Assembly (NCBI GenBank): GCA_039208735.1
Contig: JBCCQY010000002.1
Span: forward strand, 64,001-128,000
From: Myxococcota bacterium
GTDB taxonomy: Bacteria > Myxococcota_A > UBA796 > GCA-2862545
Length of the DNA: 64,000 nucleotides
Reading direction: 5' to 3'
Under the pieces are notes generated by a model, which saw nothing but the letters and a program-made list of their open reading frames with translations, searched no databases and was not told where the DNA came from. A program made the position numbers and the translations under genes. This document shows, piece by piece, positions 11,167 through 63,564 of this stretch. How positions within the stretch are numbered: position 1 is the first letter of the stretch; every line of letters begins with the position of its first letter.

Positions 11167-11212
11167 GGAACCTCCGAGGAGCTGTCGTCCCAACGGAGGT
11201 CCCTTCGCGAAC

Positions 11213-15793: not shown

Positions 15794-17179
15794 ATGGCGA
15801 CGCGGATCGAGAAAGACAGCCTGGGTGAGGTCGAGGTCCCCGACGAGCGCTATTGGGGCGCCCAGACCGAGCGCAGCCGTCAGAATTTCCCAATCGGTAC
15901 CGAGACGATGCCCGAGGAGTTGATCGCGGCGTTCGCCGTCGTGAAGAAGGCCGCCGCCCGTACGAACGTGGCGCTCGCGGGGCTTCCCGCCGAGACGGGC
16001 AAGGCCATCGAGTCGGCTTGCGACGAGATTCGAGCCGGGAAGCTGCCTCACGAGTTCCCTTTGGTGGTCTGGCAGACGGGGTCGGGAACCCAGAGCAACA
16101 TGAACCTCAACGAGGTCATCGCGAACCGCGCCAGCGAGATGCTGGGCGGCGACTTCCGCGTGAACCGTCAGGTCCATCCCAACGACGATGTGAATCGTAG
16201 CCAATCGTCGAACGACACCTTTCCCACCGCGATGCACATCGCGGCCTACAGCCTCGTCAAGTCGCTGACGATTCCCTCGCTCGAAGGCTTGCGCGACACC
16301 CTGGCCGCCAAATCGGCTGCGTTCGACAACGTGATCAAGACGGGCCGCACCCACCTCATGGACGCCACACCGCTGACGTTGGGGCAGGAACTGAGTGGCT
16401 ATGTCACCCAGATCGACAATGGACTCACCGCGCTCCACAACGCCCTGCCTCGCGTGGCGGAACTCGCCCTTGGCGGAACCGCGGTGGGTACGGGGCTCAA
16501 CACACCGGCTGGCTACTCCGAGGCGGTCGCCGGAGCCATTGCCGACATTACGGGGCACCCATTCGTCACGGCCCCCAACAAGTTCGAAGCGCTCTCGGCC
16601 CACGATGCGCTCGTCGAACTGTCGGGGGCGCTCAAGCGCGTTGCCGTGAGCCTGCTGCACATTGCCAACAACATTCGACTGCTGGCGTCCGGCCCCCGCA
16701 CCGGCATCGCCGAAATCACGATTCCCGCCAATGAGCCCGGCAGTTCAATCATGCCGGGGAAGGTGAACCCGACGCAGTGCGAAGCCCTCACGATGGTGGC
16801 GGCACAGGTAATTGGGAACGACACCACGGTCGCCCTGGCCGGCACCCACGGCCAATTCCAACTCAATGTGTTCAAGCCGGTGATGGCCTACAACGTGCTC
16901 CAAAGCGCGCGGCTCATCGGCGATGGCGCAAAAAGCTTCAACGAGCGCTGCGCGCAGGGCATCGAACCCAACACGGCACGCATCGCCGAACTCGTCGAAC
17001 GCAGCTTGATGCTCGTCACGGCCCTCAACAAGCACATCGGCTACGACCGGGCCGCCGAAATCGCCAAGAAGGCGCACGCCGAAGGGACGTCGCTCCGTGA
17101 AGCGGCGCTGGCCCTCGGCCATCTCTCGGCCGATGAATTCGACCGCATCGTGGTTCCCGCCAATATGGTGGGAAGGTAG
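15794..17179 (+). CDS. fumC: Fumarate hydratase class II
   Basis: [30 protein letters not shown] and [15 protein letters not shown] motifs; GGAGG SD. Confidence 0.98.
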
Positions 17180-17205
17180 GTCGGTAGGCCGCTCCGACCG
17201 AGCCG

Positions 17206-17748
17206 TTACGTCGGAGCGAGGATCATTTGCATCCGCCGACCTTCCATACGGGGATGGCTCTCGATCCGGCTCACGTCGCTCACCGCTTCGGCGATGCGGA
17301 GGCACTGCTCTGCACCGATGTCTCGGTGGGCATGCTCACGACCTCGGAACCACACGACCACCTTGACGAGGTCGCCACGGTCGAGGAAGTCCTTCGCCTT
17401 GCGAATCTTCACCGCCAGGTCGTGCTCATCGGTCTTCGGACGAATCTTCAGTTCTTTGAGCTGACGCTGATGCTGCGACTTCTTGGCCTGCGACTTGGCC
17501 TTTTTCCGGTCGTACTTCATCTTACCGAAGTCTGCGAACTTGCAGACGGGCGGATCCGCATCGGGTGCGACTTCGACCAGGTCGAGCCCGCGCTCGTTTG
17601 CGAGCTGCATGGCGTCGGCCGGCTGGAATTCTCCGAGGCGGTTGCCCTCCTCGTCGATGACCATGACCCGGCGGGCCCGAATGTGCTCATTGACCCGAGG
17701 TCCTTCGACCGGGGGTGGTGTACGGCGTCCACGACGTCGAATACCCAT
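17206..17748 (-). CDS. infC: Translation initiation factor IF-3
   Basis: RVNEHIRA, LDLVEVAPDADPPVCK, KELKIRPKTDEHD and FRGRE motifs. Confidence 0.95.
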   Translation of the reverse strand: MGIRRRGRRTPPPVEGPRVNEHIRARRVMVIDEEGNRLGEFQPADAMQLANERGLDLVEVAPDADPPVCKFADFGKMKYDRKKAKSQAKKSQHQRQLKELKIRPKTDEHDLAVKIRKAKDFLDRGDLVKVVVWFRGREHAHRDIGAEQCLRIAEAVSDVSRIESHPRMEGRRMQMILAPT

Positions 17749-17750
17749 GA

Positions 17751-17840
17751 TTACACCTGCTCCCGGTTGGGAGACTCGAGATTCACTCGTTGGATTGGTT
17801 CTCCTTGCTGAATGAGGTTTACCTTTGACTGTTCCTTCAC
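17751..17840 (-). CDS. Putative 29-aa leader ORF upstream of infC
   Basis: AAGGAG-5nt-GTG start; MKEQSKVNLIQQGEPIQRVNLESPNREQV; TAA 2 nt before the infC ATG; second in-frame AAGGAG-5nt-ATC at 17795. Confidence 0.45.
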   Translation of the reverse strand: MKEQSKVNLIQQGEPIQRVNLESPNREQV

Positions 17841-17951
17841 GAACACTCCTTGAAGGGGTGGACTAATCACGCCTCTCACCGTACAGCCTTCTTAGAGGCC
17901 CTGGGGTCGGTGTGTGAATGGGCGCCCGCGGGCGGAAGTGCCCGTTCTTTT

Positions 17952-17960
17952 AGTATAGCA
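17952..17960 (-). promoter_or_regulatory. Putative extended -10 promoter for the infC leader
   Basis: TGCTATACT on the minus strand; the identical 9-mer occurs at 52726-52734. Confidence 0.5.
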
Positions 17961-18075
17961 ACGATTCGCATTCGTTACGAGGGCCTATCGGCGGATGCGA
18001 CCTCATCACGACCGAATGCCTTCCTTGACGGATGCTCACCGGACGGACACGTGTGGCTCACGCCCGGGAGGCCCC

Positions 18076-18915
18076 ATGGATCCGTTCGACTCACCCCAAG
18101 CCGAAGGCGGTTTCAAGATCGGCGAGCTTTCGGCCGCCGTTGCCGTTAGCGACGCCATTTCAGGCATGCTGCGGAACGCCCTAGGTTGGTTCCTCGTCAT
18201 GGTCACATTCATGGTGGCCATCTTCATCGGCATTTGCCCCACCGTCGTCGGTTGGATCGTTCTCCTACCTCTGATGACGTGGGGCCTTCAGGCCTACGCG
18301 CTCGAAGCGGTCGACGGAAACGCGAACTACATGACGCTGTTCTCGGGCTGGGAGCAATTCGGCACGATGATGGCGCGCATGTGGGGCCTGTTCATTTTGG
18401 GTGGTTTGGCGTACGGACTGCTCTTCACTCCGCCCTTCGTGCTCATCTCGTACCCCGAACTCCAAATGATGGTCCAAGGCGATTTCGCTGCGTTTGAGCA
18501 GGCGCAAATCATGTTCACCGTCAAGTCGATGGCCGTAGGGCTCCTGATGAGCTTGCTGGCCGTCCGATTCATCCTGGTGTTGCCGTTCGTCGTGGACCAC
18601 GACAAGCCCATCCTCGAGGCCATTTCCGAGAGCTGGCAGCGGACGGGCAGCCATTGGCTCACCCTGATCGGAATCATCTTGCTCTACCAGCTGCTGCTCG
18701 TCCCCGGCCAGGTGCTGAACCTTGGGGCGGCTCAATTCAATACGCAGGCCCAAAGCAACCCTGAAGAACTCGTCGCCGCCCTGCCCTTGGTTTTGGGCGC
18801 TCAGCTCTTCGCGACCGTGCTCAACCTCGTCGTCGCAGTGTTCTTCTCGATGCTGACGGCGAGCGTGTTTCGTCAACTGGCCGGGCCTTCCCCCCAGAAG
18901 GCTGCGGGCGCCTAA
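18076..18915 (+). CDS. Integral membrane protein of unknown function
   Basis: About 6 hydrophobic segments and an EAISESWQRT motif; GGAGG SD. Confidence 0.7.
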   Translation: MDPFDSPQAEGGFKIGELSAAVAVSDAISGMLRNALGWFLVMVTFMVAIFIGICPTVVGWIVLLPLMTWGLQAYALEAVDGNANYMTLFSGWEQFGTMMARMWGLFILGGLAYGLLFTPPFVLISYPELQMMVQGDFAAFEQAQIMFTVKSMAVGLLMSLLAVRFILVLPFVVDHDKPILEAISESWQRTGSHWLTLIGIILLYQLLLVPGQVLNLGAAQFNTQAQSNPEELVAALPLVLGAQLFATVLNLVVAVFFSMLTASVFRQLAGPSPQKAAGA

Positions 18916-18983
18916 GCGTGTTTTGTGCGGGCAGGTGAAAGCTTCCGCCCGCACCCCCGTTCGGCTGCCGCAAAGGAGGCCGA

Positions 18984-21900
18984 ATGACCCGTGTGCTCGT
19001 CTGGCTCGGACTGCTCGTCGCGTGCTCTGACCGCAGACCTGTTTCCACGACGTCCCCCCCTACGGTCGAGGCGGTGGCCCCTGAAACCGCCCCCAGGGAG
19101 AGCCCCCGCCTCCCCCTCGATTCAGATGCCGCCGCGTTCTTCGATGCGATTGAGCCGGCCTGGGAGCGCGGGGATCAGCGACGTGCGATGCTGCAAGTCG
19201 ACAAGCCGTTGTACCGACCCGGCGAGACGATCTGGTTTCGCCTGTTCGACCTGCGACATCGCACGCTCGATGGTGAGGGGGCCTACCCGGTCACCGCAGA
19301 ACTCATCGACCCCCGTGGGGCGACCGTGTTCTCGAAGCGGCTGCGCAACGACGGTGGGTCGGGCTTCAACGACTTCGAGTTGCCCCCCGGAGTTGCGGGC
19401 GGCCGCTACCTCGTTCGGGTAAGCCAGACCGCCCGCGGCAAGGTGGTCGAGCGACCGGTCATCGTGGCCAGCTTCGAAGCGCCACGGGTCAAGAAGACGC
19501 TCGACTTCGTCCGAAAAGCCTATGGCGAAGGCGACAAGGTTGCGGCCACCGTAAAGGTCGAACGCGCCACTGGCGCCGCACTCGCCAACCATGCCCTCAC
19601 TGCGGTGGTCGACCTCGACGGGCGCGAACTCACCCGTTTCGTGGTGACCACCAATGCGCAGGGCGAGGCTCGAACCACCTTCACCTTGCCCGAGGCGATC
19701 GACTTTGGAGATGGACTTCTCACCGTGCTCGTCGAGGATGGTGGGGTCACCGAGTCCATTTCACGCCCCATTCCCATCGTGCTTTCAAAGGTCGACCTGG
19801 CGCTGTTTCCCGAGGGAGGCGACCGGGTGGCCGGCCTCCCCGGTCGGATCTACCTTCGGGCCCTCACGCCACGGGGCAAACCCGCAGACATCGGAGGTCG
19901 GGTGCTCGACGCAGACGGCAGCGAAATCACCACCTTCCGCACGGTGCGTGACGGGCTCGGCCGCTTTAGCCTGCCGGCCGGCGTGGACGAAGGCACGGTG
20001 GTCATCGACGAGCCTGCGGGCATCACCACGACCCTGCCCCTGCCCGAACCGAAGCCCGATGGATGCGCGATGCACGTCTACGACGACGTGACCTCCATGT
20101 TCTCGGCAATTCGGGTCGGTCTACGGTGCACCGACCCTCTCGCCGCCACCGTGCATGCGATGGTGAGAAACCGCCCCCTCGATGCAGCCACGGTGCAGGT
20201 CGACCCCGGCAAGGAGACGGTGGTTTACCTGCAGCCCGACGACATGGGAGCACGCCAACAAGGCGTCGCCCGCGTCACCCTGTTCGTTGGTGATGTGCCC
20301 GTCGCCGAACGGCTCGTGTATCGAAACCTCGGCGTCGAGCTGAACGTTGCCGTGGAGGCGAAGCCCGGTTCAGCAACCCCGCGGGAGGACATCGCACTCA
20401 CCGTCAAGACCACCGACCCGCAAGGACAACCGATCGCGGCCTCGGTCGGTCTCGCAGTGGTCGACGACACCTTGCTCTCCTACGCCGATGACGAGTTTCC
20501 GCATCTGCTGGCGGCGACTTACCTCACCCCGGATTTGCCCTACGACCTCGAAGCCTACGAACTCAACAGGTACTTCGACCCCGAGACGCCGGACCGTGCG
20601 GTGGCGCTCGACCGCCTTCTCGGCACACACGGCTGGCGTCGGTTCGAATGGAAGAGGCTTACGCACACGCCCTCGTGGCTCGCGGCGCTCGAGACCGAAC
20701 ACGCCCTCGCCGACAACGTCGTCGACATCGCCGAAGTCGAAGCCGAGGAACAAGCCGCGCCGCGTCGCGAGCGTCGCAGGAAACGTCCCATGGCCCCTTT
20801 GCCCGTCGAGGCGCCACCGCCCGAGGCCGAGCCCGTGGGCGATGAATTGCCGATGAGGGACGCAAAGGCGCCCCAGGAGGAGGTAGCGGACGGCGACTTC
20901 GCCTTCGACAAGGCCCTCGAGATGGAGGACGAGGGCAAGCAAAAGATGGAATTCGGCGCGGGGCGTTTCGACGACCGGCTGCGAGCCGCCAACGTCATGA
21001 AATGGTCGGTGGCCCGCGTTTTCCCTGTGCCACCGCCACAGCCTGCCTACGACGGACCGCGGACCGACTTTCGACAAACCATCTTTTGGAAGCCGGATGT
21101 CCAGACCGACGACAATGGCCAGGCCACCGTGCACCTCACGACCTCCGATGCCATCACGAGCTTTCGGGTCGTGGCCGAAGGGGTCGGCGGTGGTGCAGTG
21201 GGGCGAACCGAGCACGTGTTCGAAAACGTCCGTCCCTTCTCGTTGAACATCAAGCTTCCGGTCGCCTTGACCCAGGGAGACCAGCTGCAACTGCCCGTCA
21301 CGCTCGCAAGCGAAGTGAATCGGCCCCTCACGGTCCAGCTGACCCCCACGTTTGGCCCCGGCCTCACCGTGGCGGATCCTTCTCCGCGCCCCGTCGCGCT
21401 CCCTGCGCGAGGTCGCGACACCGTGTGGTTCGACGTCAAGGTTGAAGGCCCGCCCGGGACCACGTCCATCGGCATGGCCGCAATCGGTGGAGGACAATCC
21501 GATGAGATGGTGCGGGACCTCGAAGTCCATTCGCGAGGGTTTCCGCAGACCTTCGAAGCCAGTACCTCGATCGACGACCGCGAAACCTGGACCATCGACC
21601 TGGCCAAGGCGCTGCCCAACAGTGTGACCGCCAGCGTTCGCCTCTATCCTGAGCCCGTCGCCACCCTCACGGAAGGCATGGAAGGGCTGTTGAGGGAACC
21701 CAACGGCTGCTTTGAGCAGACCAGCTCCAGCAATTACCCAAACCTGATGGTACTGCGATACCTCCAGCAGCATGATGTCGCCGACGCGAGCCTGCAAAAA
21801 CGGGCTTCGGAACTCCTCGAGCGCGGCTACGCAAAGCTGGTGGGCTACGAGACCGCCGAACGCGGCTACGAGTGGTTCGGCTCGACCCCCGCGCACGAAG

Positions 21901-48678: not shown

Positions 48679-51168
48679 TCAAGAGGCGAACCACCTCCGA
48701 GAATACTCGATGGCGAGCCTCGGATCGGCAGAAAGGGTGTCGAATCGAGCCGCCCACTCAGCAAATGCGAGGGCATCCTTTTTGGCGACCACCTTCACAA
48801 TCTCGATCGTCTGATCGTTGGCCTCGTACGTTTTCGGCAACGGCTCGAGTCGGGACAACGCCTCTCTGGACTTTCCGTTTCCGACGAGGGCCAGGGCGTG
48901 GAACGCCGAAACAAGCGGGTAAGTGGTTGGATCATCGGGCAGGCAGGTTTCGAGGGCAAGCTCCAGGTACTCCAACGCCAAGGCGAACTGTCCCCGCTTG
49001 AGTTGCAGTTGTCCAAGGCTGAAATTCGCTTCCCCAACCATGTAGGCCCGACCGAGACGACGACCGAGTTCACGAGCCTCCACAATGTGCTCCTCGGCCA
49101 TGGTTTGGTCGGGCTCCATCGACGCACAATTGAGCAACGTGTGGAAGAGCAGTTGGCGCGTCGCATGCTCGCGAGCCACGGGAAGCAATTCGCTGAACCG
49201 CTGGTGGGCGGCTTCGTTTCGACCCAATTCCCCGAGCACCATGCCCTCACACATCTTGAGCACGACCCAGCTCGAGGTCCCTTCGTATGCGGTGACTTGA
49301 TCGAGTTGGCGGCGGACGAACGACAGTGCTTCGTCAAGCCGATTGAGCGAAACGAGCCCGTTGACCACAATATTCGAGAGCGCCACGCGCTGCTCAAGGG
49401 GAGCGTCCCCCAGCTGCGGCATTCCAGTCAGGGCGACGGTCACGGCTCGATTCGCATCGCCCGTGAGATAAAACGAACGCGCCACACTATCGAGCACCTT
49501 GGCTCGAAGTCTCGGAGACAGTTCTTGAGTTTCGGCGTACGTTTGCAATGCCTCTGCCTCAGAGGCCAACGCGACCACACCGTCTTGCATTCCCGTGACG
49601 TTCACGACATGGGTCCACACGTCCACAATGACGTCGGCGTCGCCTTCGTTCAAGGCTCGGTCGAGTGCGGATCGCAATGCCGGAAGCGCGCGGTCGGCCG
49701 AATCCCCTTTCAGCGTTCGTACGGCTTGTCCCACGGCTACCCGAACGCCGAGTCTCGGCGAAAGTTCGTCTGGGTTGAGTGTATCGATCCACCCAAGCTC
49801 GCCTCGATGGGGGCCAAAGTACGCTTGGTGCTGCGTCAAGGCCAACGCCAGGAGTGCTCGCTCGTCGGCAGTATCGACGCGTGGGGTAGCCTCAAGCCAT
49901 CGAGCCTTGCCTTTTCGAAGCCTTCCCAGCACGTCCTCTGACGGTGTACCAAACACGAGTTCCTCGGCTTGCTGACAGGCCAACTGCACAAATCTCTGCC
50001 AAACCTCGGCCGAAAGCTGCTGTCGAATCACCTGACGAACCACGTCAAACAAGAACCACCGCTCACCATCGCGCAACAGCAATGACCCGTTCAGCAGCTC
50101 CTCAACGTCATCGAGCACGTCACGCCCCGCAATGTGCTCGATGTCATTTAGGTCAAACGGACCCGGAAACGTCGCGAGAAGATTCAGTACCTCACGGGCC
50201 GAGGGGTCGAGCCGGGCGGCTGCGCCATCGATCACATTCGCCAAGGTTCTCTTTCGTCGTTCGATCAACGCCCCGTCTTCGAGGGAGGCCGCCAAACGAC
50301 TCAACGGAATCCGACGCGCTAACGAAGCGGTAAGCTCGATGGCGAGGGGAATCCCGCTGGCCAGCTCCAGCACGGGACGGAGCACCGCGTCGCTCAACGT
50401 TGACGGATGCAGCTCAGACGGGGCCCTGCGTCGAAACAGTGTGGCGGCATCGGCGTGGGTGAGCGGGCCCAGGGGCAGTTGGGGCACGAGCGATGGAGCC
50501 TGACGCGCCGTGACGACGAAGAACGTGGAGCCCAACCGTGCCCAGTCCGCAATCAGCTCGAAGGCTTCGTCGGACAGTTCGTCTGCACCATCGACGATGA
50601 TGAGGCCCGCATTGGCCACCGGCAGCCCGTACGCCACCATGCCTTCGTCCGCCTTGACCGGTTCGAGTTCGATGGCCTCGGCCACCAACGCCGTCAGCTC
50701 TCCTCGTGATTGGGTGCCTGCTGCATCGATCCAAATGGTTTTCCCACTCTTACGCGCTGTCGCCCGGGCAAGCCTCGTCTTGCCGATCCCTCCTAAACCG
50801 ACCACCACACACCATTGCTCCTCCAACAAAATGCGTTGGAGTTCCGAAAGCGCGACGCTTCGTCCCACCAAGCCGTGGTCGGGATCGTCGTAGCGATACC
50901 CAACCCCCACGACCGTCGAGATTAACGAAGCATCCTCTCCCAGTTTGCCCCTGAGACGGGCCACCAATTTGTCGATCGCCCGAGTCCGAATTCGAGGGGA
51001 ATAGGACCAAACGTCGGCAAGCAACTCTCGACGGGACACCGTGACACCCGGCCGGGTCGCCAGGTGTCGCAAGAAATCATGCTCGAGTTTGGTCAGGCCG
51101 ACCTGTTCATCGAGTCGCTGGAGCACCAAGCGGTCATCATCCAAGTTCCACGAACCGAATCTTGCCAC
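48679..51168 (-). CDS. OmpR-type winged-helix + P-loop (NB-ARC/STAND-like) + TPR transcriptional regulator
   Basis: RRELLADVW...RLRGKL...GVGYR, Walker A GLGGIGKT, GIPLAIEL and TPR-like C-terminus; GAGGA SD with GTG start. Confidence 0.8.
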   Translation of the reverse strand: MARFGSWNLDDDRLVLQRLDEQVGLTKLEHDFLRHLATRPGVTVSRRELLADVWSYSPRIRTRAIDKLVARLRGKLGEDASLISTVVGVGYRYDDPDHGLVGRSVALSELQRILLEEQWCVVVGLGGIGKTRLARATARKSGKTIWIDAAGTQSRGELTALVAEAIELEPVKADEGMVAYGLPVANAGLIIVDGADELSDEAFELIADWARLGSTFFVVTARQAPSLVPQLPLGPLTHADAATLFRRRAPSELHPSTLSDAVLRPVLELASGIPLAIELTASLARRIPLSRLAASLEDGALIERRKRTLANVIDGAAARLDPSAREVLNLLATFPGPFDLNDIEHIAGRDVLDDVEELLNGSLLLRDGERWFLFDVVRQVIRQQLSAEVWQRFVQLACQQAEELVFGTPSEDVLGRLRKGKARWLEATPRVDTADERALLALALTQHQAYFGPHRGELGWIDTLNPDELSPRLGVRVAVGQAVRTLKGDSADRALPALRSALDRALNEGDADVIVDVWTHVVNVTGMQDGVVALASEAEALQTYAETQELSPRLRAKVLDSVARSFYLTGDANRAVTVALTGMPQLGDAPLEQRVALSNIVVNGLVSLNRLDEALSFVRRQLDQVTAYEGTSSWVVLKMCEGMVLGELGRNEAAHQRFSELLPVAREHATRQLLFHTLLNCASMEPDQTMAEEHIVEARELGRRLGRAYMVGEANFSLGQLQLKRGQFALALEYLELALETCLPDDPTTYPLVSAFHALALVGNGKSREALSRLEPLPKTYEANDQTIEIVKVVAKKDALAFAEWAARFDTLSADPRLAIEYSRRWFAS

Positions 51169-51288
51169 TATATCCTCATCCTGGTCCGGACTTCCCAAAG
51201 GGCAGCGCATTCTTTAACGCTATTGGCGCACCAGGTCTTCGAAGCACAGGATAAGTCGAATGCCTCATCGAGCCTCAGGGCCAAGCGA

Positions 51289-53191: not shown

Positions 53192-54847
53192 TCAGGCCAT
53201 CCGTCCAACCCCGGCAAATCGAATGCCGGCGAGCGCGGCCGTAGTCTCGTCACACGTAGACAGATCCGAAGGTTGAAACTTGCGGAATGCATCGTGACCG
53301 CAAGCTCGCGCCAACACCTTCATCAGTTCGGTGGCCCCGATGAAGAAATTGGCCAAGCGCGTGGCGCTAGCTTCCACCACAAGCCGCTTGCGAAGGTGTT
53401 CCTTGCGGGTCGCGATGCCGACGGGACAGTTGTTCGTGTTGCAAGCCCGCATGCCAAGGCAACCGATGGCCTGCAGGGCCGCGTTGGAGACCGCAATGGC
53501 GTCTGCTCCGAGCATCAGGGCCTTCACAAAGTCGGTAGGAACGCGCAGGCCGCCGGTCACGATCAAAGTCACCGGCTTGTCGCTGCTCCGCCCCCGGCCG
53601 ATTCGCTCCAGGTAGTGTCGGGCGCGCGCCAGCGCGGGAATGGTCGGCACGCTGATGTGGTCACGGAAGATGACCGGAGCCGCGCCCGTTCCCCCTCCAC
53701 GACCGTCCAAGATGATGTAGTCGGCGGTCGACTCGATCGCGAAGTCGATGTCGTCTTCGATGTGCTGACCGCTCATCTTGAAGCCGATGGGGATGCCGCC
53801 GGTCGCGTCTCGTACCTCATCCGCGACCCGTCGGAAGTCGGCCGGGGTCGAGAGATCGGTGAACGTGGCCGGTGAAATGGCGCTCTGTCCCACCTCGATG
53901 CCACGAACCTGTGCAATGCGCGCATCGACCTTGTGGCCCGGCAGGTGACCCCCCGTGCCCGTCTTGGCTCCCTGACCCGCCTTGAAGTGCATGGCTTGCG
54001 ACTTCTGGGCATTCGCGATGGACCAGCCAAACCGACCGCTGGCCAGTTCAAGCAGATAGCGCGAGTTCGCCTGCTGCTCCTCGGGTAGCATGCCCCCCTC
54101 TCCCGAGCAGATCCCCGTTCCCGCACGCTCCGCGCCCTTGGCGAGCGCGAGCTTGGCTTCCTCCGAGATCGCTCCAAAGCTCATGTCGCTGACGAACAAC
54201 GGAATCTCGAGTTCGAGCGGCTTGTTGCACGCCGGACCGATCACCGTTCGCGTGTCGACGGGATGGTCATCGAGCAACGGCTTGCGCCGCAGCTGGGCCG
54301 TCAGAATCTGAAGATCGTCCCAGGCGGGCAGTTTGTGGTGCGGAACCCCCATGGCCACGGTGACCCCGTGGTGCCCCACTCCGGCGATGCCTTCCCGGGC
54401 GAGGCGTTGGATGAACGCGTTGTGGGGCTCGTCAGGCGTGCCGTGGGGGTCTTGGTAGTCACCAAGGTACGCATCGCGGTTGAAGGGCTGTGGATGCTCG
54501 GTGCGCCACCGTGCGACTTCATCCGCATCGACGGTCACAGACCGTTGGCCATCGACATCCTCAATCCACGCCGAGAATTTCTCGAGAACCTCGTCGTTTT
54601 TGTACTCAGAGACACCGGTGTCGAAACGGTAGTCCCAGTTATGAAGGCCGCAAACGAGGTTGCCACCTTGGATATGACCATCGGCGAGTAGGGCACCCCG
54701 ATGGAGGCAACGCCCATAGAGCACCGAGACCTGATCAGCGCCATCGCGTTCATAGCGAACGATCACGAGGTCGACGTTGGCGACCCGAGCGGGGGTGGGA
54801 GTGAGGGCGGGCAGCTGGTTCCAACGGGCCACGACCACGCGATTCAT
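53192..54847 (-). CDS. Rieske 2Fe-2S domain fused to FMN-binding glutamate synthase-family domain
   Basis: CLH...CGLH, SDMSFGA, CSGEGG, GQGAKTGTGG and 3Fe-4S CLGMRACNTNNCPVG motifs; GGAGGAG SD. Confidence 0.88.
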   Translation of the reverse strand: MNRVVVARWNQLPALTPTPARVANVDLVIVRYERDGADQVSVLYGRCLHRGALLADGHIQGGNLVCGLHNWDYRFDTGVSEYKNDEVLEKFSAWIEDVDGQRSVTVDADEVARWRTEHPQPFNRDAYLGDYQDPHGTPDEPHNAFIQRLAREGIAGVGHHGVTVAMGVPHHKLPAWDDLQILTAQLRRKPLLDDHPVDTRTVIGPACNKPLELEIPLFVSDMSFGAISEEAKLALAKGAERAGTGICSGEGGMLPEEQQANSRYLLELASGRFGWSIANAQKSQAMHFKAGQGAKTGTGGHLPGHKVDARIAQVRGIEVGQSAISPATFTDLSTPADFRRVADEVRDATGGIPIGFKMSGQHIEDDIDFAIESTADYIILDGRGGGTGAAPVIFRDHISVPTIPALARARHYLERIGRGRSSDKPVTLIVTGGLRVPTDFVKALMLGADAIAVSNAALQAIGCLGMRACNTNNCPVGIATRKEHLRKRLVVEASATRLANFFIGATELMKVLARACGHDAFRKFQPSDLSTCDETTAALAGIRFAGVGRMA

Positions 54848-54937
54848 GGACTCCTCCGATTGTCTAGGAGACTCTACCGGGAACTTGCGCCCCGATGAGT
54901 CCAGTGTGCGAAGATCGGTCCCCCCCCCGGAGGAGAC

Positions 54938-55414
54938 ATGTTGCGCATCACTGCACTTTGGGCCCTGTTGACGGGCTGCGTCGGCACCGAGCCAGACACG
55001 ACCCCAACCGACGAGACGGCCACGCCAACCGAGACCCTCCCTACAGCCGAAACCGGCGAGAAAAAGAGCCCCGATACCCCGCCGGTCGTCACGATTACGA
55101 TGCCCAAAAAGGCACAATCCTCGTTGTTCTACGACGGCTACGACAACGACGCGATGCTCTGGTACAAAGACGTGACCTTCGAGGGCACCGCCACGGACGC
55201 CGAAGACGGCGAACTCTCCGGAGCATCGTTGGTTTGGACGACCAACAAGTCCGGCATTCAAGAAGCCGAACTGGGCACGGGCGGATCGATTACCGCGCGG
55301 CTCTACAGCGACGACTGCTTTGGAGCCACGCACAACATCACGCTGACGGGGACGGACAGCGACGGCAATGCCGTCTCTGCCGTCGTCGAGATCTTCATCT
55401 ACACCGTCTGCTGA
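54938..55414 (+). CDS. Hypothetical lipoprotein (Ig-like/PKD-like)
   Basis: GGAGGAG SD, lipobox LTGC, DAEDG and HNITLTGTDSDG motifs. Confidence 0.7.
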   Translation: MLRITALWALLTGCVGTEPDTTPTDETATPTETLPTAETGEKKSPDTPPVVTITMPKKAQSSLFYDGYDNDAMLWYKDVTFEGTATDAEDGELSGASLVWTTNKSGIQEAELGTGGSITARLYSDDCFGATHNITLTGTDSDGNAVSAVVEIFIYTVC

Positions 55415-56775: not shown

Positions 56776-57906
56776 CTAATCTTCCCCGCTTTCTTCCTCG
56801 GGTTCTGGCAGCAGCGACTTACGAATGCGGTGCCACACATACCCGGCATCCGAACCGGGATCGTCCCATCGACCTGAGAACCTTCCGCAAAAGCTCGATT
56901 TCAAGATCTCCGCGAGGAGCGCATCGTCGGCCTTCTCCATGAGCGGATGCTTGAGATAAATGCACACTTCATCGGTGGCCCGAACCGACAGGCCCGCTAC
57001 GAGCTCTTTGGCATCGCGAACCTCGTTAGCGAGCTTCACGATGGTCTTGAGCCGTGCCTTCGAGACCTCGGGATGCCGCCGATGCAGCAACTTGACCTCT
57101 TCCTCCGCGGGCAGGTAGGTCACCTGAAGAGGCGCAAAGCGGTCGAGTTGGGCCGCATCGATCGAAAAGGTTCCGGTGAACGCCGACCCCCGATTGACTG
57201 CGGCCACAAACTGTACGTTGTCAGGAATGTCGAGGAACGCGTTGGTGACAGGATCGAAGAGCTTCCGAGTGCTGTCCAACGCGGGCATCAGCGTATTGCG
57301 CGCGGCTTCTGGACAACGATTCAGCTCGTCGAGGAACACGAGGTAGCGCCCATCGTCCTCGCGCGCCTCGAACAGCGCGGCCCGCAGGTCCGTCGAGACG
57401 AAATCGGTGATGGGCACCCCACCTTCACCGGCTCGGACTTGAATCGTGGCCATGAAGTCGGTCGCTTCAATGACCGAACTGCAGTTGAAGAATACGAACC
57501 GCATGCCCAACGTCTCGGAGATTGCGCGGGCGAGAACAGTTTTCCCAGAGCCCTGTGGACCATCGAGCAGAATGTTGAGGCCACTTTCGAGAAGCACCTG
57601 TAGCTTTCGCGAAACCACAGGATCCAGATAGATCCCATCGATCTGAAGCGCATGGGCCCGCACGAACTCCACCTCGATCCAGCCCCGGTCGCTCCGTTCG
57701 GGTTTGTGGACCTCGACAATGCGCACCTCGGTCCGCATACCAGGTCGAATGCGCGGATCGTCGGACAATACGACTTTGGGAGCGCGCTTACCGTCGAGGT
57801 GAGTCGCCCGATAACGGTATTTGGAGCTATCAACCGGGTTGACGAAAAACGTGGTGGACATCGTCTTACCGACGTGGATCTCGTGGACCTTCCACTTGCC
57901 GCTCAT
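56776..57906 (-). CDS. MoxR-like AAA+ ATPase (AAA_5 / CbbQ-NorQ-like) with N-terminal beta domain
   Basis: Walker A GPQGSGKT, Walker B VFLDELNR, AAVN, IDAAQLDRF and SVRA motifs; GGAG SD immediately after the vWA gene stop. Confidence 0.88.
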   Translation of the reverse strand: MSGKWKVHEIHVGKTMSTTFFVNPVDSSKYRYRATHLDGKRAPKVVLSDDPRIRPGMRTEVRIVEVHKPERSDRGWIEVEFVRAHALQIDGIYLDPVVSRKLQVLLESGLNILLDGPQGSGKTVLARAISETLGMRFVFFNCSSVIEATDFMATIQVRAGEGGVPITDFVSTDLRAALFEAREDDGRYLVFLDELNRCPEAARNTLMPALDSTRKLFDPVTNAFLDIPDNVQFVAAVNRGSAFTGTFSIDAAQLDRFAPLQVTYLPAEEEVKLLHRRHPEVSKARLKTIVKLANEVRDAKELVAGLSVRATDEVCIYLKHPLMEKADDALLAEILKSSFCGRFSGRWDDPGSDAGYVWHRIRKSLLPEPEEESGED

Positions 57907-57914
57907 GAACTCTC

Positions 57915-60900
57915 CTACCGGCGCGCACGCATCGTGGTTGCCACGAGGCCCTGGACGATGCGGCCGAAGCGGCGCACCGCATCGCCGGTTTCATCGTTCA
58001 GCACCTCGACGTAATGGTCGAAACAGGGCTCGCGAATCGGCGCGACCGCGACCTGGGCGCAGGCCATGCCTTCGCGAGAGAGTCTGCGGACCAGCCCGAT
58101 GAGTGCGTTCGAGGTGCACTCCGTGGGAAGCCCATCGCTGATCATGACGAGGAGCTTGACGTCGCGGGGGCTTCGTCGCGCCAGCGTTGCGACATGGTGC
58201 AACGCCGCCGCATCGTTGTTGCCGCCCTCCGTACGCAAGGCATGGGCCGCACTGCGCATGGCGTTGCCCGCATCGAACAGCTTCGAGTCGGTAAAGCCAA
58301 AGGTCCGAAGATCGACGCTCGCCAGTCCTCGGCAGGCTTCAGCCATCAAGGTTGCAAATCGGCGAGCCCGCTCGAGCCGGGCTCCGCCCATCGAGCCCGA
58401 ACAATCCACGCAGACGCCGACGAACAGGTCGTTGGCCGGCATGCGAACCCGACTCACCAAGATGCGCGGATCCCGTCGGAGCGCAGCGTGCACCAAACGC
58501 CCTCGATCGATGCGATGCCCTTGGGTGCGGGGCTTGACCGGTCGGGTGGCCAAGCCCAAATCGGCGAGAGCGGCCCGAAGTTGGCTTGCCGGTCGCTGAA
58601 CATCACGGGCGAGCCGGGCGTGCGCCACCGGATCATGGGACAGGACCTCGATGGTTTCAATGCGGTCGAATTCGGTTTCATCCCCTACATTGATGGTGTC
58701 GGGGCCGGCGGCCCCTTCGCCAAACCCCTTGGGCTTCTCCCGAATGCGCTGGAGTTCATCGGCTTTGCCTTGAACCTCCTCGTCGGTGACCCCACGGCCA
58801 CCCGGAATCGCCTCACCATCGCCCCCCGCCGAGGTTTCGTGCAGGTCGACGAGGTCCATGAGGTTGACGTCATCCCCAAACAACTCGTGCAGCGCGAGGG
58901 TGACCTTCCACAGTCCCTCGTTGTCGAGCTTCCGGAACCCCTTCCCAAACAGGGCCAGACCCTTCTCAACGAGCGGATCCCCGTGCCGATTGCCAAGCCC
59001 CATGCGCAGGGCCCGCACAAAGCGGGCGAAGCTCGATCCCTCGGCTTCGAGCTGCCGGAACAGCCGGCCCATTTCGATGGTGACGCAGCCCACCGTCCGC
59101 GCCACGCCCATCGAGGTGGCGATGAGGCGGTCGACCGACATGCCAAGGCGCTCGATGAGCGTGAGCACGTGGATGTCGGTGCGGGTGTGAAGGAACGCCC
59201 ACGCGGCCAACCGCTTGAGCACAAGGTCGTAGCCAGGCTTCATCGATCGCAAATTGCGTTCAAGATGCTCGTCGCACACGAGATTGTGAAGACGCTGAAG
59301 CTTCTTCTCCCCCGCCCGTTTCCAAACCTCGAGGCCTTCTCGGCTTGCGTTGTAGAGGTGGTGCCCAAGTTCGTGGATGAGCAGTCCCTTCAGAATCGCC
59401 GCGCCATTCCGCTCCCGGCGCAACAGCGGCAGCGGATTGACGTAGACGCGGTCCTGCTCGAGACGGGTATAGCCGAGCGACTCCCCTCCAATGAGCTGAA
59501 CGCCGAAGTCCCGATCGAGCAGGTCGCGGGCCTGGTCGCGCCCCCACAACACAACGCGAGCAAGCCGCCCCACCACCCGTTGCTTGATGTGGCGATTGTC
59601 CAGGTGATTAAGGGCTTCACGCTGTACCGCCTCTTGGTCGCAGTCGTTGAGGATGGCCAGCGCGGCCCTCGTCCGCTCAAACAAGGGCACATGGGAGGCG
59701 ACAACCGCCGTGAGCAGGGCGCTTGGCGGCACAAGGTCCGTCCCGGCCAGCACACCGGCTCGCGCGACTTCGTCGGCCCCCCGTGGGGCGAGTTCGACGA
59801 AGGGCTGGGTGTCGTTGCGCACCTGCTCCATGCGCCGCGCGGCCAGGATGGGTGCGCCCAGCGAGTCTCCCCGCGTGGCCAACGCTTCAGCCGCGGTCAG
59901 CCGAATCTTGGCCATCCGGTTCCGACCATGACGTAAGAACCGTCGTAGCGGCTCAATCTCCCGCCCATCGGGCTCCTCGATCAGCAAGAGCACGGCCCAG
60001 CGGTAAGCAGGGAAATGCGGGCTATCGACCAGAGCGATGGCAAGTTCCATGCTTCGGTCTGAGGGGGCATGGGCAAGCCAACGCGTGAAACGGGCGTGAT
60101 CGAGCCACGATCGAGCCTCATCGGTATGGGGGGCCACCATTGCGGCGACCGCCGGTTCGACGCAATCTACGTCGTCGAGGAACGCTCCTTCCGCCAACGC
60201 CAATGCCACGTGGAAGCGCACCTGTGGGGGGCGCGACGGATCGGCGAGGGTCTCGGCCAGAAGGCGAAGGGCATCCGAGTCCGACACAAGGGCAACCGCC
60301 TGGCAGAGCACGGCGGGATTGCGGCCCGGAGTCTCCACGAGAGCGTGAACGAGCGCGCGTCCGCCTTCTGGAAGCTCGAGAAGGCGCAACGAAGCCAGTT
60401 CCGCCCAGCCTCGCTCACCGCGCTGAACAATGTCGATGAGCACCGCCACGTCCGTGAGAGATTCCACGCCCTGCGGCACCTCCACGGTCTCGCCCGGCGG
60501 CTCCTCCGTCCCCGACGGTGGTTCGACGCCCAGCCACGCAGCGAGTTCGGCGACGGTTCGCGGAGGAAGCTCCCCGAGTCGGGCTTCCACAGGCTCGCGA
60601 TACGCCGAGAGGTCGATGCCCAAATGCACCATCGCGTTCAAGATCAGGGCCGCCTGTCGGGTGACGTCGGCGAAATCGGGGCGACTGGCAACATAGGCCC
60701 GGGGTGAGCCCGACGTGGCGTTCGCTCCATCGAAGGAACGGACGACGATCGTCAAGAATCGATCGTGCGCCACCTCGACCAGCGTTGTCGGCACACGCCA
60801 CCGCCAACGACCGCACAAGTGCCGAACGGCTTGCCACAGTCGATGCCGAAGCCGAGTGGACGGGAGCTCGAGCGAACGGGCCAGGACGGCGGCGAGGTCC

Positions 60901-62990
60901 TGGGCCTGGTCGGTCGCCCACGACACAAAGACGGAAAACGGGCGATCCCAGCGCCACAACCATGCCGCCATCGCCGTTCCCACCTGATCGTCCTGACCAA
61001 AGTTCTTGACGGCGCGGGTCTCGAGTTCGTGCCAAAACGCGTCGGTGGATTCGCTGTAGTCCTCCAGAAGCCGGCCAACCGATTCGAGACGATCCCCAGA
61101 CAACAACAGGGCCAAGCATGCCTCGATGCTGGGCTGTGGCTTGCGGTTGTCCAGCGCTTCAACGACCCCGCGGCTGCGCGCGGACAACGCCGGAGCCAAC
61201 GCCGTGGCAAGCTGCTTGGGAGTCGCGGTCTTGATTCGGTTGAGTTCGGCATTGGTAAGACCACGGCCTGGCGAGGCCTCGGCCAACCGGGCCATGGCGA
61301 CCTCGACCGGCGCCAAAACCTCGCGTGCCCATGCCTGAATGCCCGAATGCCCATGGTGTTGCAGGGCTTTGGCCACCTCCTGCTGCAACGCCCAGGGCAG
61401 CGCATCTTCCTTGCGATCCAAGTCGACGAGCCGCTGCAGCGCTGCACCGGACAGATCATCCACCACGGAAGACCCCAGAGCCACCAAGGCCTGCGTCACC
61501 AAGTGATGGACGAACCCACCCGACAACGCCTGCTCCAGCACCGCGGAAAGCGCGGCCACCGTGTTGAACGGAGGGTGGCGAGCCAGCTTCGTGACGTGCC
61601 GCTCGCGGATGGCTCCGTTCCGATCCAGACTGGCGAGAGCGGCAAGAACCTCCCGCAACAATGCATCCTGTTCCGCTTCCCCCCAGTCCGAGGGGCGAGC
61701 TTCGAGCAGCAACAAGGCCTCTTTGGGAAGCCGTACGGCAGCGTGCGCGATGAGGGTCGCGGTGGCGCGTCCATGCTGGTTCAGCACGTCCAACAACAGC
61801 GTTCGGCGAGCGGACTTGTCACGGCGCGTCTGCACCGGTACCGCGAGCAGCCGGCCCCCCGCGTCTGGGTCCTCCACCATCGCGTTGACCAGCGCATCCC
61901 GGCGAAGGTCCGGATGCTGCAGCAGCGTGTCGAACGCGTTGGGCCCCGCCAGCCGGACCAACCCGGTCAGCCCGTCGATCGACACCGCGTCCCAGGGCAC
62001 GTGCTCAAACAGCCCGTCTTGCACCTCGGAGGGGAGACTCCCTTGGACCGCGCGGGCGTAGTGTGGCAACGCGGGCCACAGCCGATCGGGGTGCATCAGA
62101 CGGGCCAGGCCAGGGAACCCCGCCAGAGCCAATGCCAACCCGAGGGGCCACCAATCCAACTTCGAAAGCACCACCACCACACTGATCGCCAGGCGACGTT
62201 CGTGGTCGGTCAGCGCACCGCCCGATGCGACGTCGTGGAGCCACTGTTCCACGATGCTTGTCGCATGTGGATCTTCGGCCATCGCTCCACTGATGATGGT
62301 TCGAACCAACTCATCCAAACTGTCGGACTGGGACCGCCACGCGAGGATTTGCTCGCCCAACGGCTCGTCCTTGGTGGGCGCCGGATTCCGGGTCGCGGAA
62401 AAGACGGTGACGATGGCCTCGAGCTGATGACGCCAATCCAGACTGGCCAAGCAACGGAAGACCAGCCCCGTGGCCAGACCGCCCCGTTTGGTCAGGCGCA
62501 TCAGATCACCGACGCTGCCCGGCTCGAGCCCATGTACGAGCAGGCGGGCCTCGAGCATCGGCCCCACCTCGGGGTCGCCAAGCAACGGCAGCAACGACCA
62601 CTGTGGCATCGCGGCATGGCTCGGCATCGCCTCGAGGGTCTGTTGACGGACATCGGACCGCGGATGGTACAGCCCGTGGACCCACAGCAATCGGTCCATC
62701 CGACCCACCACGGCACACGACCGCATCGCGGCGGCCCGAACCGCGTCCTCCTCATCGTCGAGGGCTCGAACCAGAGCCGTGCGGGCCCCGAGTCCGGTGG
62801 CCCCCTCAAAGGCCGCGAGGGCCGCCACCCGAACGGCCGGCGCATCATGGTCCAACAATGCCTCGACCCGTGCGAAATACGGCCAACGGTCTGAGGCCGA
62901 AAGCTCCGCGAGGGCGTCGAGCCACTCAACCAGCTCATCATCCGACCGTTCCGGGTCGGTGAGGGCGTTCCAACAATCCAAGTCACGCAT
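57915..62990 (-). CDS. Giant HEAT-repeat / HEXXH metallopeptidase-like / vWA protein
   Basis: HEAT motifs (PAVRVAAL, DAVRAAA), IHELGHH...NLVCDEHLE, MIDAS DCSGSM, GNND and ISDG. Start set at ATG 62990. Confidence 0.8.
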   Translation of the reverse strand: MRDLDCWNALTDPERSDDELVEWLDALAELSASDRWPYFARVEALLDHDAPAVRVAALAAFEGATGLGARTALVRALDDEEDAVRAAAMRSCAVVGRMDRLLWVHGLYHPRSDVRQQTLEAMPSHAAMPQWSLLPLLGDPEVGPMLEARLLVHGLEPGSVGDLMRLTKRGGLATGLVFRCLASLDWRHQLEAIVTVFSATRNPAPTKDEPLGEQILAWRSQSDSLDELVRTIISGAMAEDPHATSIVEQWLHDVASGGALTDHERRLAISVVVVLSKLDWWPLGLALALAGFPGLARLMHPDRLWPALPHYARAVQGSLPSEVQDGLFEHVPWDAVSIDGLTGLVRLAGPNAFDTLLQHPDLRRDALVNAMVEDPDAGGRLLAVPVQTRRDKSARRTLLLDVLNQHGRATATLIAHAAVRLPKEALLLLEARPSDWGEAEQDALLREVLAALASLDRNGAIRERHVTKLARHPPFNTVAALSAVLEQALSGGFVHHLVTQALVALGSSVVDDLSGAALQRLVDLDRKEDALPWALQQEVAKALQHHGHSGIQAWAREVLAPVEVAMARLAEASPGRGLTNAELNRIKTATPKQLATALAPALSARSRGVVEALDNRKPQPSIEACLALLLSGDRLESVGRLLEDYSESTDAFWHELETRAVKNFGQDDQVGTAMAAWLWRWDRPFSVFVSWATDQAQDLAAVLARSLELPSTRLRHRLWQAVRHLCGRWRWRVPTTLVEVAHDRFLTIVVRSFDGANATSGSPRAYVASRPDFADVTRQAALILNAMVHLGIDLSAYREPVEARLGELPPRTVAELAAWLGVEPPSGTEEPPGETVEVPQGVESLTDVAVLIDIVQRGERGWAELASLRLLELPEGGRALVHALVETPGRNPAVLCQAVALVSDSDALRLLAETLADPSRPPQVRFHVALALAEGAFLDDVDCVEPAVAAMVAPHTDEARSWLDHARFTRWLAHAPSDRSMELAIALVDSPHFPAYRWAVLLLIEEPDGREIEPLRRFLRHGRNRMAKIRLTAAEALATRGDSLGAPILAARRMEQVRNDTQPFVELAPRGADEVARAGVLAGTDLVPPSALLTAVVASHVPLFERTRAALAILNDCDQEAVQREALNHLDNRHIKQRVVGRLARVVLWGRDQARDLLDRDFGVQLIGGESLGYTRLEQDRVYVNPLPLLRRERNGAAILKGLLIHELGHHLYNASREGLEVWKRAGEKKLQRLHNLVCDEHLERNLRSMKPGYDLVLKRLAAWAFLHTRTDIHVLTLIERLGMSVDRLIATSMGVARTVGCVTIEMGRLFRQLEAEGSSFARFVRALRMGLGNRHGDPLVEKGLALFGKGFRKLDNEGLWKVTLALHELFGDDVNLMDLVDLHETSAGGDGEAIPGGRGVTDEEVQGKADELQRIREKPKGFGEGAAGPDTINVGDETEFDRIETIEVLSHDPVAHARLARDVQRPASQLRAALADLGLATRPVKPRTQGHRIDRGRLVHAALRRDPRILVSRVRMPANDLFVGVCVDCSGSMGGARLERARRFATLMAEACRGLASVDLRTFGFTDSKLFDAGNAMRSAAHALRTEGGNNDAAALHHVATLARRSPRDVKLLVMISDGLPTECTSNALIGLVRRLSREGMACAQVAVAPIREPCFDHYVEVLNDETGDAVRRFGRIVQGLVATTMRARR

Positions 62991-63006
62991 GACGTGCCCT
63001 ATGGGT

Positions 63007-63444
63007 ACACCACGGCGGTCCGATGACGGGGGCATGACCTCGCACCCGGGGAGCCGGACCGGGCCCACCACGCCGTTCGTGAACGGGCGCCACGTAGCCG
63101 TGGCCCCCGATCGCCCGGCGACCCACGAGGGGCCGCAGCGTTGTGTTTCCGATCCTGGGTTGGGAGTGCATCGAAGGAAGCGACAAGCCGAGGACCAAAG
63201 AAGGGCGGATGCATCCGAAGATGTCATCGAGGTGGTTGAAATGCCCTTCGGTCGTGCGCGCAGCCCGCTCCCACCTGAGAAGACTGGATGCTCGCGCACC
63301 TCACCCTGCACCTTCCTGACAACCGGGGAAGGTTCAGAGGCCCATGCGTCGCAAACTCATGGGCTAACTCCACTTGCGACCGAAGCCGCAGCGTTCAGCT
63401 CACGTCGTACGAAGGAAACGTCCGAAACCGGACCGCCGTAGTGT
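63007..63444 (-). ncRNA. Unnamed large structured RNA element (putative 5' leader of the vWA-MoxR operon)
   Basis: 16-bp closing helix with a G-U pair on the minus strand, at least 6 internal stems, two cUUCGg tetraloops and duplicated motifs; no credible CDS. Confidence 0.65.
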
Positions 63445-63564
63445 CAAAGAACCGGGTCGAACCAGGACAGAACCTGAACGACAGCGAGAGGCGCAAAACG
63501 CGCACGACTCATGACGGCTCCAAGAAGGAAAGTGAAGAACGCTCTTTCGAGCTTCTACATTCCT

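Follow-up and report, generated by a model that had tools for sequence, protein, structure and literature searches.

A MoxR-class ATPase and its HEAT-repeat, zincin-like, vWA adaptor in a Myxococcota genome: a predicted cellular counterpart of phage metallopeptidase-vWA pairs

The MoxR-vWA pairs that have been studied at the bench (NorQD, CbbQO, CobST, and RavA-ViaA) remodel their client proteins uncut, which raises the question of what such a motor would do when its von Willebrand factor A (vWA) adaptor carries a protease-type site. This question is posed by a locus in a 64,000-nucleotide (nt) stretch of a Myxococcota bacterium (GenBank assembly GCA_039208735.1, contig JBCCQY010000002.1, positions 64,001 to 128,000 of the forward strand; hereafter the window), where the gene for a 1691-amino acid (aa) adaptor, here called BIG, is followed by that of a MoxR-class AAA+ ATPase. 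An earlier note on this DNA, made from the sequence alone, had described the two as a coupled unit in which a MoxR ATPase partners a HEAT-HEXXH-vWA protein of 1691 aa, with about 1200 aa of helical repeats, a zincin-like HELGH...NxxxD segment at about 59260-59375, and an intact metal ion-dependent adhesion site (MIDAS). The analysis presented here finds the pair to be a cellular variant of the MoxR plus metallopeptidase-vWA kind, and neither a ternary conflict system nor NorQD, CobST, or CbbQO proper.

The pairing itself is well founded. The two open reading frames (ORFs) stand in tandem on the minus strand, the vWA protein first and the ATPase second, with 8 nt between the BIG stop codon and the ATPase ATG and a GGAGAG ribosome-binding site that overlaps the stop. 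The BIG frame (57915-63311, minus strand) is open from a GTG at 63311, and translation from the Met at 62990, which lines up with a conserved start in 20 of 21 full-length relatives, yields 1691 residues, so that both the gene and the length given in the earlier note are confirmed. The same holds for the coupling. Among 78 loci examined, mostly from Polyangia-type Myxococcota and Planctomycetota, the ATPase gene follows BIG on the same strand and no more than 300 nt away in 61; in eight others it sits 0.6-6 kb downstream, behind inserted unrelated genes, and in one on the opposite strand at the locus edge; it is absent from the remaining eight loci, two of which end less than 1 kb from BIG. 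A search with the core of the adaptor returned 841 representative clusters at E ≤ 0.001, 356 of them at E ≤ 1e-30, and 199 genomes in one-genome-per-species data encode a relative; given the 356 clusters and 199 species genomes, the pair is not a chance association. A complex prediction for the ATPase and the adaptor core scored 0.00 in both runs, which were made without controls, and weighs neither way on binding.

The anatomy of BIG was derived from alignments and structure models, since Pfam and NCBIfam are nearly blind to the protein: VWA, VWA_2, CobT_C, and HEAT_2 all fall below their Pfam cut-offs (VWA and VWA_2 just below), the zincin-like domain has no Pfam or NCBIfam model, and family members are annotated only as "vWA" or "HEAT repeat" proteins. 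The zincin-like domain belongs to a core, shared with a shorter form of the protein, that begins at residue 1076 (BIG 1076-1691 aligns with P0273 at E 1e-146). A model of residues 1125-1384, with a predicted local distance difference test (pLDDT) score of 91.8, consists in order of a long backing helix, a three-stranded sheet, the HExxH helix, and a later helix bearing DEHLE, and thus places the HExxH on the helix after a backing helix and β-sheet, as in gluzincin-type metallopeptidases. The HELGH (residues 1206-1210, at 59375-59361) and N1236...D1240 both fall inside the segment singled out in the earlier note. The H, E, G, and H of HExGHH are invariant in 64 of 64 relatives, as is the N...DEHLERNLR motif, and H1206, E1207, G1209, H1210, and H1211 are invariant in all 22 full-length sequences; apart from these motifs the 64 zincin-domain sequences are 38-58% identical to that of the window, with one at 80%. 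Either of the invariant residues E1241 and E1244, on the helix at model residues 108-126, is a candidate for the third zinc ligand.

Fold searches point the same way. The top Foldseek rows against the PDB are zincins (abylysin, selecase, LTA4H, and an M48-like peptidase; weak, E 0.08-0.6), and about 22 of the top 25 VIA-align rows are of zincin type, judged from row titles, with ZMPSTE24 at Z 6.8, abylysin and HtpX at 6.2, and selecase, BepA, SPRTN, and Wss1 also present. Descent of the domain from a CobT N-domain was considered: an ESM Atlas search placed a CobT-domain cluster at rank 13, and a comparison of the zincin profile with one such N-domain (L086) by hhalign found nothing. DUF2201 metallopeptidase-vWA-like proteins (PF13203/PF09967) pair with MoxR; their hidden Markov models matched neither whole BIG at E ≤ 0.01 nor the 64 zincin-domain sequences at E ≤ 1. 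The domain is accordingly predicted from the model and its matches to adopt a zincin fold with an intact protease-type site.

The vWA domain is more readily recognized. Residues 1451-1691 comprise the domain together with extra N-terminal helices, and a profile comparison assigns it to the CobT vWA type (E 2.5e-7), while Foldseek retrieves NorD (9qhd_G, 2.1e-9) and the Rea1 MIDAS. Its MIDAS, which the earlier note had called intact, is complete: DCSGS (1529-1533, at 58392-58406), GNND (1590-1593), and SDG (1618-1620) are invariant in all 22 full-length and all 64 core sequences. The ATPase is a Pfam AAA_5 protein (E 1.8e-12; 47.9 bits, where the cut-off is 22). Among 34 orthologues from two phyla, with a mean pairwise identity of 69%, none departs from its Walker A (GPQGxGKT) or Walker B (FLDE) motif. 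Residues N238, R256, and R309 are likewise invariant in all 34 and, from their positions, probably serve as sensor and Arg-finger residues. The best PHROG for the ATPase is the CobS-like phrog_249 (3.6e-20). No NCBIfam equivalog fits it (GvpN, 42.9 bits against a cut-off of 266.8), the Pfam bpMoxR match is under threshold (16.4 bits against 27), and CbbQ_C is not matched. The 100 residues that precede its AAA+ core are conserved (61% mean pairwise identity) and have no sequence match in the PDB; an ESM Atlas model with TM 0.57-0.61 to TRAM/S1 proteins suggests, as a lead only, that they may form an OB/TRAM-like barrel.

Both proteins have their closest solved relatives partly in midasin. The best structural match of the BIG MIDAS domain is Rea1 (Z 19.5, root-mean-square deviation 2.8, 199 residues aligned), followed by MDN1 (Z 19.2), with generic vWA domains at or below 17.6, and the closest solved sequence relatives of the ATPase are the midasin AAA modules (E 1e-20), with NorQ matched over the whole domain at 1.8e-6. 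The pair could then be a MIDAS-based disassembly or release factor like Rea1/midasin, in which the zincin-like domain would be a non-catalytic structural or docking module; many vWA-fused peptidase domains are inactive according to Kaur et al. (PMC7159879). Every catalytic-type residue is, however, invariant across 64 sequences of low identity, a pattern that a decayed site would hardly show, and the six-AAA single chain that defines midasin is absent. We regard this explanation as very unlikely.

What lies between and beside these domains suggests how they might work together. The 70-residue linker that joins the zincin-like domain to the vWA part is acidic and Gly-rich (18 D+E, 7 K+R, 12 G; 31% identity) and is predicted to be disordered, with pLDDT values under 50 for model residues 233-250 and 270-289. 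Just before the vWA domain lies a basic loop with invariant residues R1488, G1491, R1493, D1495, P1508, R1509, and R1514 and low pLDDT at model residues 331-344 and 363-369; model residues 309-535 align with NorD 382-638, a range that contains the NorD finger at residues 403-448, as placed in the NorQD cryo-electron microscopy study (PMC13036017). By analogy with NorD, the loop R1488...R1514 is a candidate pore-inserting finger.

Taken with the NorQD cryo-electron microscopy work as mechanistic template (PMC13036017), these features favor a remodelling motor of the NorQD/CbbQO type in which the adaptor would double as a zinc protease for a specific client, an explanation to which we assign about an even chance. 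In this scheme, a hexameric ATPase ring would hold the vWA domain through the pore-inserted loop and the adaptor C-terminus, while the MIDAS site and the 1075-residue helical scaffold would hold a client protein. ATP hydrolysis would rotate the vWA domain, twisting and stretching the linker, and the client would be exposed to, or positioned at, the adjacent zincin site, to be remodelled and likely cleaved. Coupled remodelling and cleavage are predicted because the N-terminal part of the adaptor here includes the zincin site, and the earlier note's idea of an ATPase-gated protease borne by a helical scaffold is plausible if NorQD is taken as a model. A dedicated cellular client, which the pair might help to mature or keep under quality control, is favored. 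The module is single copy in this 9.4-Mb genome, full-length relatives are mostly about 1600-1790 aa among those listed, with a uniform architecture, and a FastTree phylogeny of the core mostly tracks families (13 of 14 Planctomycetota rows form one clade within Myxococcota diversity; the root is arbitrary and no donor direction is claimed). The single copy, the uniform length and architecture, and the family-following tree argue for a fixed machine rather than a diversifying one.

The N-terminal part of BIG, which would capture the client, is the least conserved. The earlier note's "about 1200 aa of helical repeats" stands for residues 41-124, which match alphaRep/HEAT chains at E 1e-24 to 1e-6 (Pfam HEAT_2 reaches E 0.0081, under its cut-off, and the PADLOC HEAT-ARM_XIII match at 4.3e-8 reflects repeat similarity only); for the remainder it is only presumed. 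Residues 125-1075 are Ala/Leu-rich, with a mean pairwise identity of 25-26%, many BIG relatives bear precomputed HEAT matches, and the middle region (397-1075) matches no Pfam or NCBIfam family. This stretch is presumed to be a helical scaffold.

The core and part of this N-terminal region also occur apart. A cellular short form of 730-755 aa, assigned to Thermoanaerobaculia or Acidobacteria by the labels of some records, corresponds to BIG 1076-1691, and on two near-identical metagenome contigs the gene for a 730-aa zincin-vWA short form is convergent to an ATPase gene. In this short-form system (L080: 2530-4892, minus strand; L079: 2712-3857, minus strand) the ATPase gene is followed by one for a 695-aa protein whose first 360 residues correspond to BIG 58-396 (hhalign probability 96%, E 3.2e-9, 320 columns) and whose C-terminus is an FGE-sulfatase domain (3.2e-35 in the L080 protein). 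Because the short-form core and this N-module exist as separate proteins, the makeup of BIG suggests that a recognition module was fused to a zincin-vWA core. No shorter proteins with the N-module (query residues 1-420) were found at E ≤ 0.001 among 7996 candidates, and no second copy of it was found in this genome.

Relatives of the core extend to phages. A zincin-only model, without the vWA domain, matches phage "VWFA/CobT-like" proteins of 570-810 aa in BFVD (E 2.6e-5, with a TMq of about 0.5 for some 250 columns). In Bacteroides phage BS162P1 an AAA_5+CbbQ_C ATPase gene is followed by one for a 618-aa protein that combines HExxH and N-I-L-E-D-E-R-I-E-R with a CobT_C vWA domain. The vWA parts of BIG and this protein align with an hhalign E of 7.9e-11; in the zincin parts the motifs are collinear. 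The link was found by the fold search and an ATPase search rather than by tblastn with the adaptor, since tblastn of phages with the adaptor core gave only vWA-level matches (four records).

Several observations weigh against a remodelling motor with a built-in protease. The zincin matches in the PDB are weak (Z ≤ 6.8; Foldseek E ≥ 0.083), no Pfam or NCBIfam peptidase family matches the domain, and at sequence level its resemblance to the phage protein falls short of significance (hhalign E 0.0086, probability 4.7%). Six of the 78 loci have at least 5 kb downstream of BIG and no ATPase gene nearby (L006, L043, L048, L053, L065, and L076). To our knowledge, all characterized AAA_5-vWA pairs work without proteolysis, and the His/Glu cluster could hold metal for delivery. 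Three further observations fit a conflict system as well: the module is rare and patchy (in the window's phylum 11 of 301 sampled genomes have it, one of 18 other genomes of its own family among them, and in the Planctomycetota sample three of 201); some genomes hold two adaptor copies; and the scaffold (25% identity) evolves far faster than the motor (69%).

The doubt about proteolysis leads to the possibility that the pair is a chaperone for metal-center or cofactor insertion (like NorQD, CobST, BchID, or CoxDE), in which the His/Glu/Asp cluster would carry metal and nothing would be cleaved. The closest characterized relatives of both proteins belong to metal-insertion systems (CobT, NorD, NorQ, and the CobS-like PHROG), the HExGHH/DEHLE motif is unusually rich in metal ligands, and MoxR-vWA pairs typically serve target remodelling and metal insertion, as the NorQD study states (PMC13036017). 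Nevertheless, the 78 loci share no target or metabolic gene close to the pair, the domain topology and the peptidase-enriched fold matches point to a zincin catalytic site, and for the phage relatives, which share the motif, a metalloenzyme client is not apparent, so that we hold metal insertion to be quite unlikely. The earlier note had named a housekeeping pair of the CobST/NorQD type in a conserved metabolic context as the case that would overturn its interpretation; this case was not encountered, as the neighbourhoods in the 78 loci are not conserved and the CobT N-domain family (PF06213) was not found in this genome, with the CobT/NorD-like vWA domain as the common ground.

Rarity and rapid scaffold evolution raise another explanation, that of a conflict or defence system similar to those of the MoxR-vWA type in multicellular bacteria. 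An invader protein would be detected by the fast-evolving scaffold, whereupon the MoxR motor would activate a zincin effector; the pair might then be a domesticated phage assembly chaperone-protease. Its distribution over large-genome Myxococcota and Planctomycetota is sparse and patchy, the module is self-contained and set in variable neighbourhoods, and conservation falls from motor to core to scaffold. The copy in a genome of the same genus (G202) is only 47% identical, some genomes carry two adaptor paralogs (with the order BIG1-AAA-BIG2 in L002 and L003), and three loci have a SUKH-like ORF between both genes (E 6.9e-5, below cut-off). The short-form N-module is fused to an FGE-sulfatase domain, which Kaur et al. 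count as an effector or sensor domain (PMC7159879), and the core has phage relatives. Rarity, paralogs, a fast-evolving scaffold, the FGE-sulfatase partner, and phage kin thus keep defence alive. Against it, VMAP, iSTAND, FtsH, and beta-propeller third components are not among the clustered flanking ORFs, the vWA domain is C-terminal, no PADLOC system is matched beyond generic HEAT and AAA similarity, the architecture is uniform and not shuffled, and the tree is largely congruent with taxonomy; the adjoining ORFs that were examined, a part of the 864 flanking ones, showed no mobile-element or known defence genes. On balance, a defence role is credible but unlikely. A more specific version, in which a phage virion-assembly chaperone-protease was domesticated and gained a 1075-residue sensing scaffold to become an ATP-gated "guided protease" of immunity, is improbable; here the scaffold would capture an invader structural protein, the MIDAS would latch, and the motor would feed the built-in zincin. 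Membership in the multi-component MoxR-vWA conflict systems, which the earlier note had brought up, is supported only as far as the MoxR-class/vWA pair itself: there is no conserved third component, the vWA domain is C-terminal, and bpMoxR stays below its cut-off.

The features of the locus on which this account rests are collected in the following table.

Table 1. Features of the two-gene unit and its leader, in window coordinates.
Feature	Position	Strand	Basis
Large adaptor gene BIG, 1691 aa + stop	57915..62990	-	ORF list; start Met conserved
AAA_5/MoxR-class ATPase gene, 376 aa + stop	56776..57906	-	ORF list, Pfam, alignments
Junction: TAG stop, GGAGAG, ATG; 8-nt spacer	57907..57917	-	Sequence inspection
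Conserved non-coding leader upstream of BIG	62991..63522	-	Alignment with L001
22-codon upstream ORF (uORF) in leader	63444-63512	-	Ends kept
BIG HEAT repeats, residues 41-124	62619..62870	-	alphaRep/HEAT chains
BIG N-module, residues 58-396	61803..62819	-	hhalign to separate short-form partner protein
BIG middle region, residues 397-1075, presumed helical scaffold	59766..61802	-	Poorly conserved
BIG conserved pre-zincin helix + zincin-like domain, residues 1076-1380	58851..59765	-	Alignment, model, fold searches
BIG HExGHH, H1206-H1211	59358..59375	-	Predicted active-site helix, model residues 72-90
BIG N1236...D1240-E-H-L-E-R-N-L-R1248	59247..59285	-	Next-but-one helix, model residues 108-126
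BIG acidic Gly-rich linker, residues 1381-1450, predicted disordered	58641..58850	-	pLDDT, composition
BIG pre-vWA helices + conserved basic loop	58428..58640	-	Invariant residues, low pLDDT
BIG vWA domain with MIDAS + conserved C-terminus, residues 1522-1691	57918..58427	-	Profile, fold, alignment
ATPase N-terminal beta domain, residues 1-100	57607..57906	-	Alignment, ESM Atlas model
ATPase AAA+ core, residues 101-365	56812..57606	-	Motif residues invariant in 34/34
ATPase Walker A, residues 116-123	57538-57561	-	34-orthologue alignment
ATPase Walker B, D193-E194	57325-57330	-	34-orthologue alignment

Upstream of BIG, the non-coding leader is 76.7% identical to that of the nearest relative, L001, over 528 nt, a comparison of these two sequences. 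The identity is similar to that of coding sequence (71-79%), and other intergenic DNA of both genomes is not alignable. The indels are not multiples of 3, the start and stop of the uORF are kept in L001 while its codons are not, and the leader folds somewhat better than shuffled sequences (z -2.7). No Rfam family reaches its gathering threshold in the window, the leader giving only a chance-level lncRNA row (E 0.9). The leader is likely under constraint, as far as two aligned sequences can tell, and may have a part in regulating the two genes, which the earlier note had placed under the control of an upstream RNA element.

The surroundings of the module vary. Clustering of the 864 flanking ORFs from the 78 loci revealed no other conserved neighbour and no conserved third component; the only family recurring in more than eight loci, Ser/Thr kinases (19 loci), occurs at varying positions and on varying strands and was judged to be background for these phyla. 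Two window genes downstream of the ATPase gene are common only to L001, namely those for a 430-aa protein and for a 713-aa protein (53192-55333, minus strand) with a Rieske [2Fe-2S] domain (7.1e-11) and a glutamate-synthase FMN domain (1.3e-88), the latter protein 84% identical between the two loci. An 843-aa SARP-like regulator with Trans_reg_C, AAA_22, and TPR in that order is encoded at 48679-51210 (minus strand). Four related Polyangiaceae-type loci, L009 (16913-18838), L012, L015, and L019, have a sulfatase gene (PF00884, 7.8e-25) immediately after the ATPase gene, and a distant sulfatase is found in L062; in the remaining loci and the window tblastn detected none, and a sulfatase link was dropped as an explanation because it is not general. 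The SUKH-like small ORFs mentioned above stand just upstream of the ATPase gene in three of these four loci.

The carriers among Myxococcota include Sandaracinaceae, Nannocystaceae, Kofleriaceae, Polyangiaceae, Minicystis, and Plesiocystis, and the shared core is present in the cultured organisms Sandaracinus amylolyticus, Minicystis rosea, Plesiocystis pacifica, and Lignipirellula cremea. Five loci labelled "uncultured Enterobacteriaceae/Enterobacterales" (L001, L004, L045, L052, and L075) carry the module and branch among Myxococcota, and these labels look unreliable. The L001 core is 78% identical to that of the window, against the 47% of the same-genus copy, and core copies in the window lineage may not be simple orthologues. 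Two adaptor paralogs surround a single ATPase gene in L002 (about 3353-13305) and L003 (about 10001-20380), and genomes G303 and G407 each have two adaptor copies. In L042, from a Pirellulales metagenome-assembled genome, the C-terminal zincin-vWA part is recorded as a separate 646-aa protein (P0248), which suggests a split or frameshifted gene.

Among known systems, the pair has the general makeup of the MoxR-class/vWA group: the AAA_5 ATPase keeps both Walker motifs intact, the partner ends in a vWA domain whose MIDAS is complete, and the neighbouring genes run in the same direction. To this makeup the pair adds a predicted metallopeptidase domain N-terminal to the vWA domain. No description of the cellular family was found in open-access literature text. 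The nearest described counterpart is a phage pair of MoxR and a metallopeptidase-vWA protein, named by prediction in jumbo phages and proposed to act in virion assembly with proteolytic processing (Iyer et al., 2021; PMC7824862), a function that is itself a prediction. As in the phage pair, an AAA_5 gene lies beside one for an HExxH...N-x-x-x-D-E-x-x-E-R domain, linker, and CobT-type vWA domain, the ATPase matches the CobS-like phrog_249, and the zincin fold matches phage VWFA/CobT-like proteins. In contrast, the window locus and its relatives are cellular and lie among cellular genes, the gene order is reversed (adaptor first here), BIG has an extra 1075-residue scaffold, and the window ATPase has the 100-residue N-terminal beta domain and no CbbQ_C. 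Unexplained phage "CobS/CobT-like" genes thereby gain a cellular counterpart.

With NorQD, CbbQO, and CobST the pair shares the ATPase class, the vWA type (NorD 2.1e-9, CobT 2.5e-7), the order of N-terminal domain, linker, and vWA domain, a disordered acidic linker, a loop at the position of the NorD finger, and a conserved C-terminus. It differs in that no nitric oxide reductase, Rubisco, or CobN context occurs in the 78 loci, the adaptor, at roughly three times the size, bears a zincin motif, and the norQD, cbbQO, and cobST gene orders are the reverse of BIG-then-ATPase. Rea1/midasin likewise has an acidic linker before the MIDAS, in addition to the best structural match of the MIDAS domain and the best solved sequence match of the ATPase, but is one eukaryotic chain with six AAA modules and no peptidase motif, whereas the ATPase here is a separate protein of 376 aa with a single AAA module. 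The ternary systems of Kaur et al. (2020; PMC7159879) also combine a MoxR-class ATPase with a vWA partner and are enriched in Myxococcota and Planctomycetota, and fusions of their vWA protein bring in scaffolding repeats or, in rare cases, a metallopeptidase. Their vWA domain, however, is N-terminal with variable C-terminal effectors, whereas here it comes last in a fixed architecture, and their third component (VMAP, iSTAND, double FtsH, or beta-propeller) has no equivalent among the 864 flanking ORFs (PMC7159879).

The comparison with proteolytic AAA+ machines is one of analogy; the FtsH family gave no match among the Pfam and NCBIfam results for the pair. FtsH couples an AAA+ motor to an M41 HExxH zinc protease, and it is in this coupling that the likeness would lie; FtsH nevertheless belongs to another AAA clade, has its protease in the same chain, is hexameric and membrane-anchored, and has no vWA domain or MIDAS. 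If the zincin site of BIG is active, the pair would represent a new coupling of AAA+ ATPases to proteolysis, with one MIDAS-guided adaptor per ring, unlike FtsH, Lon, and Clp.

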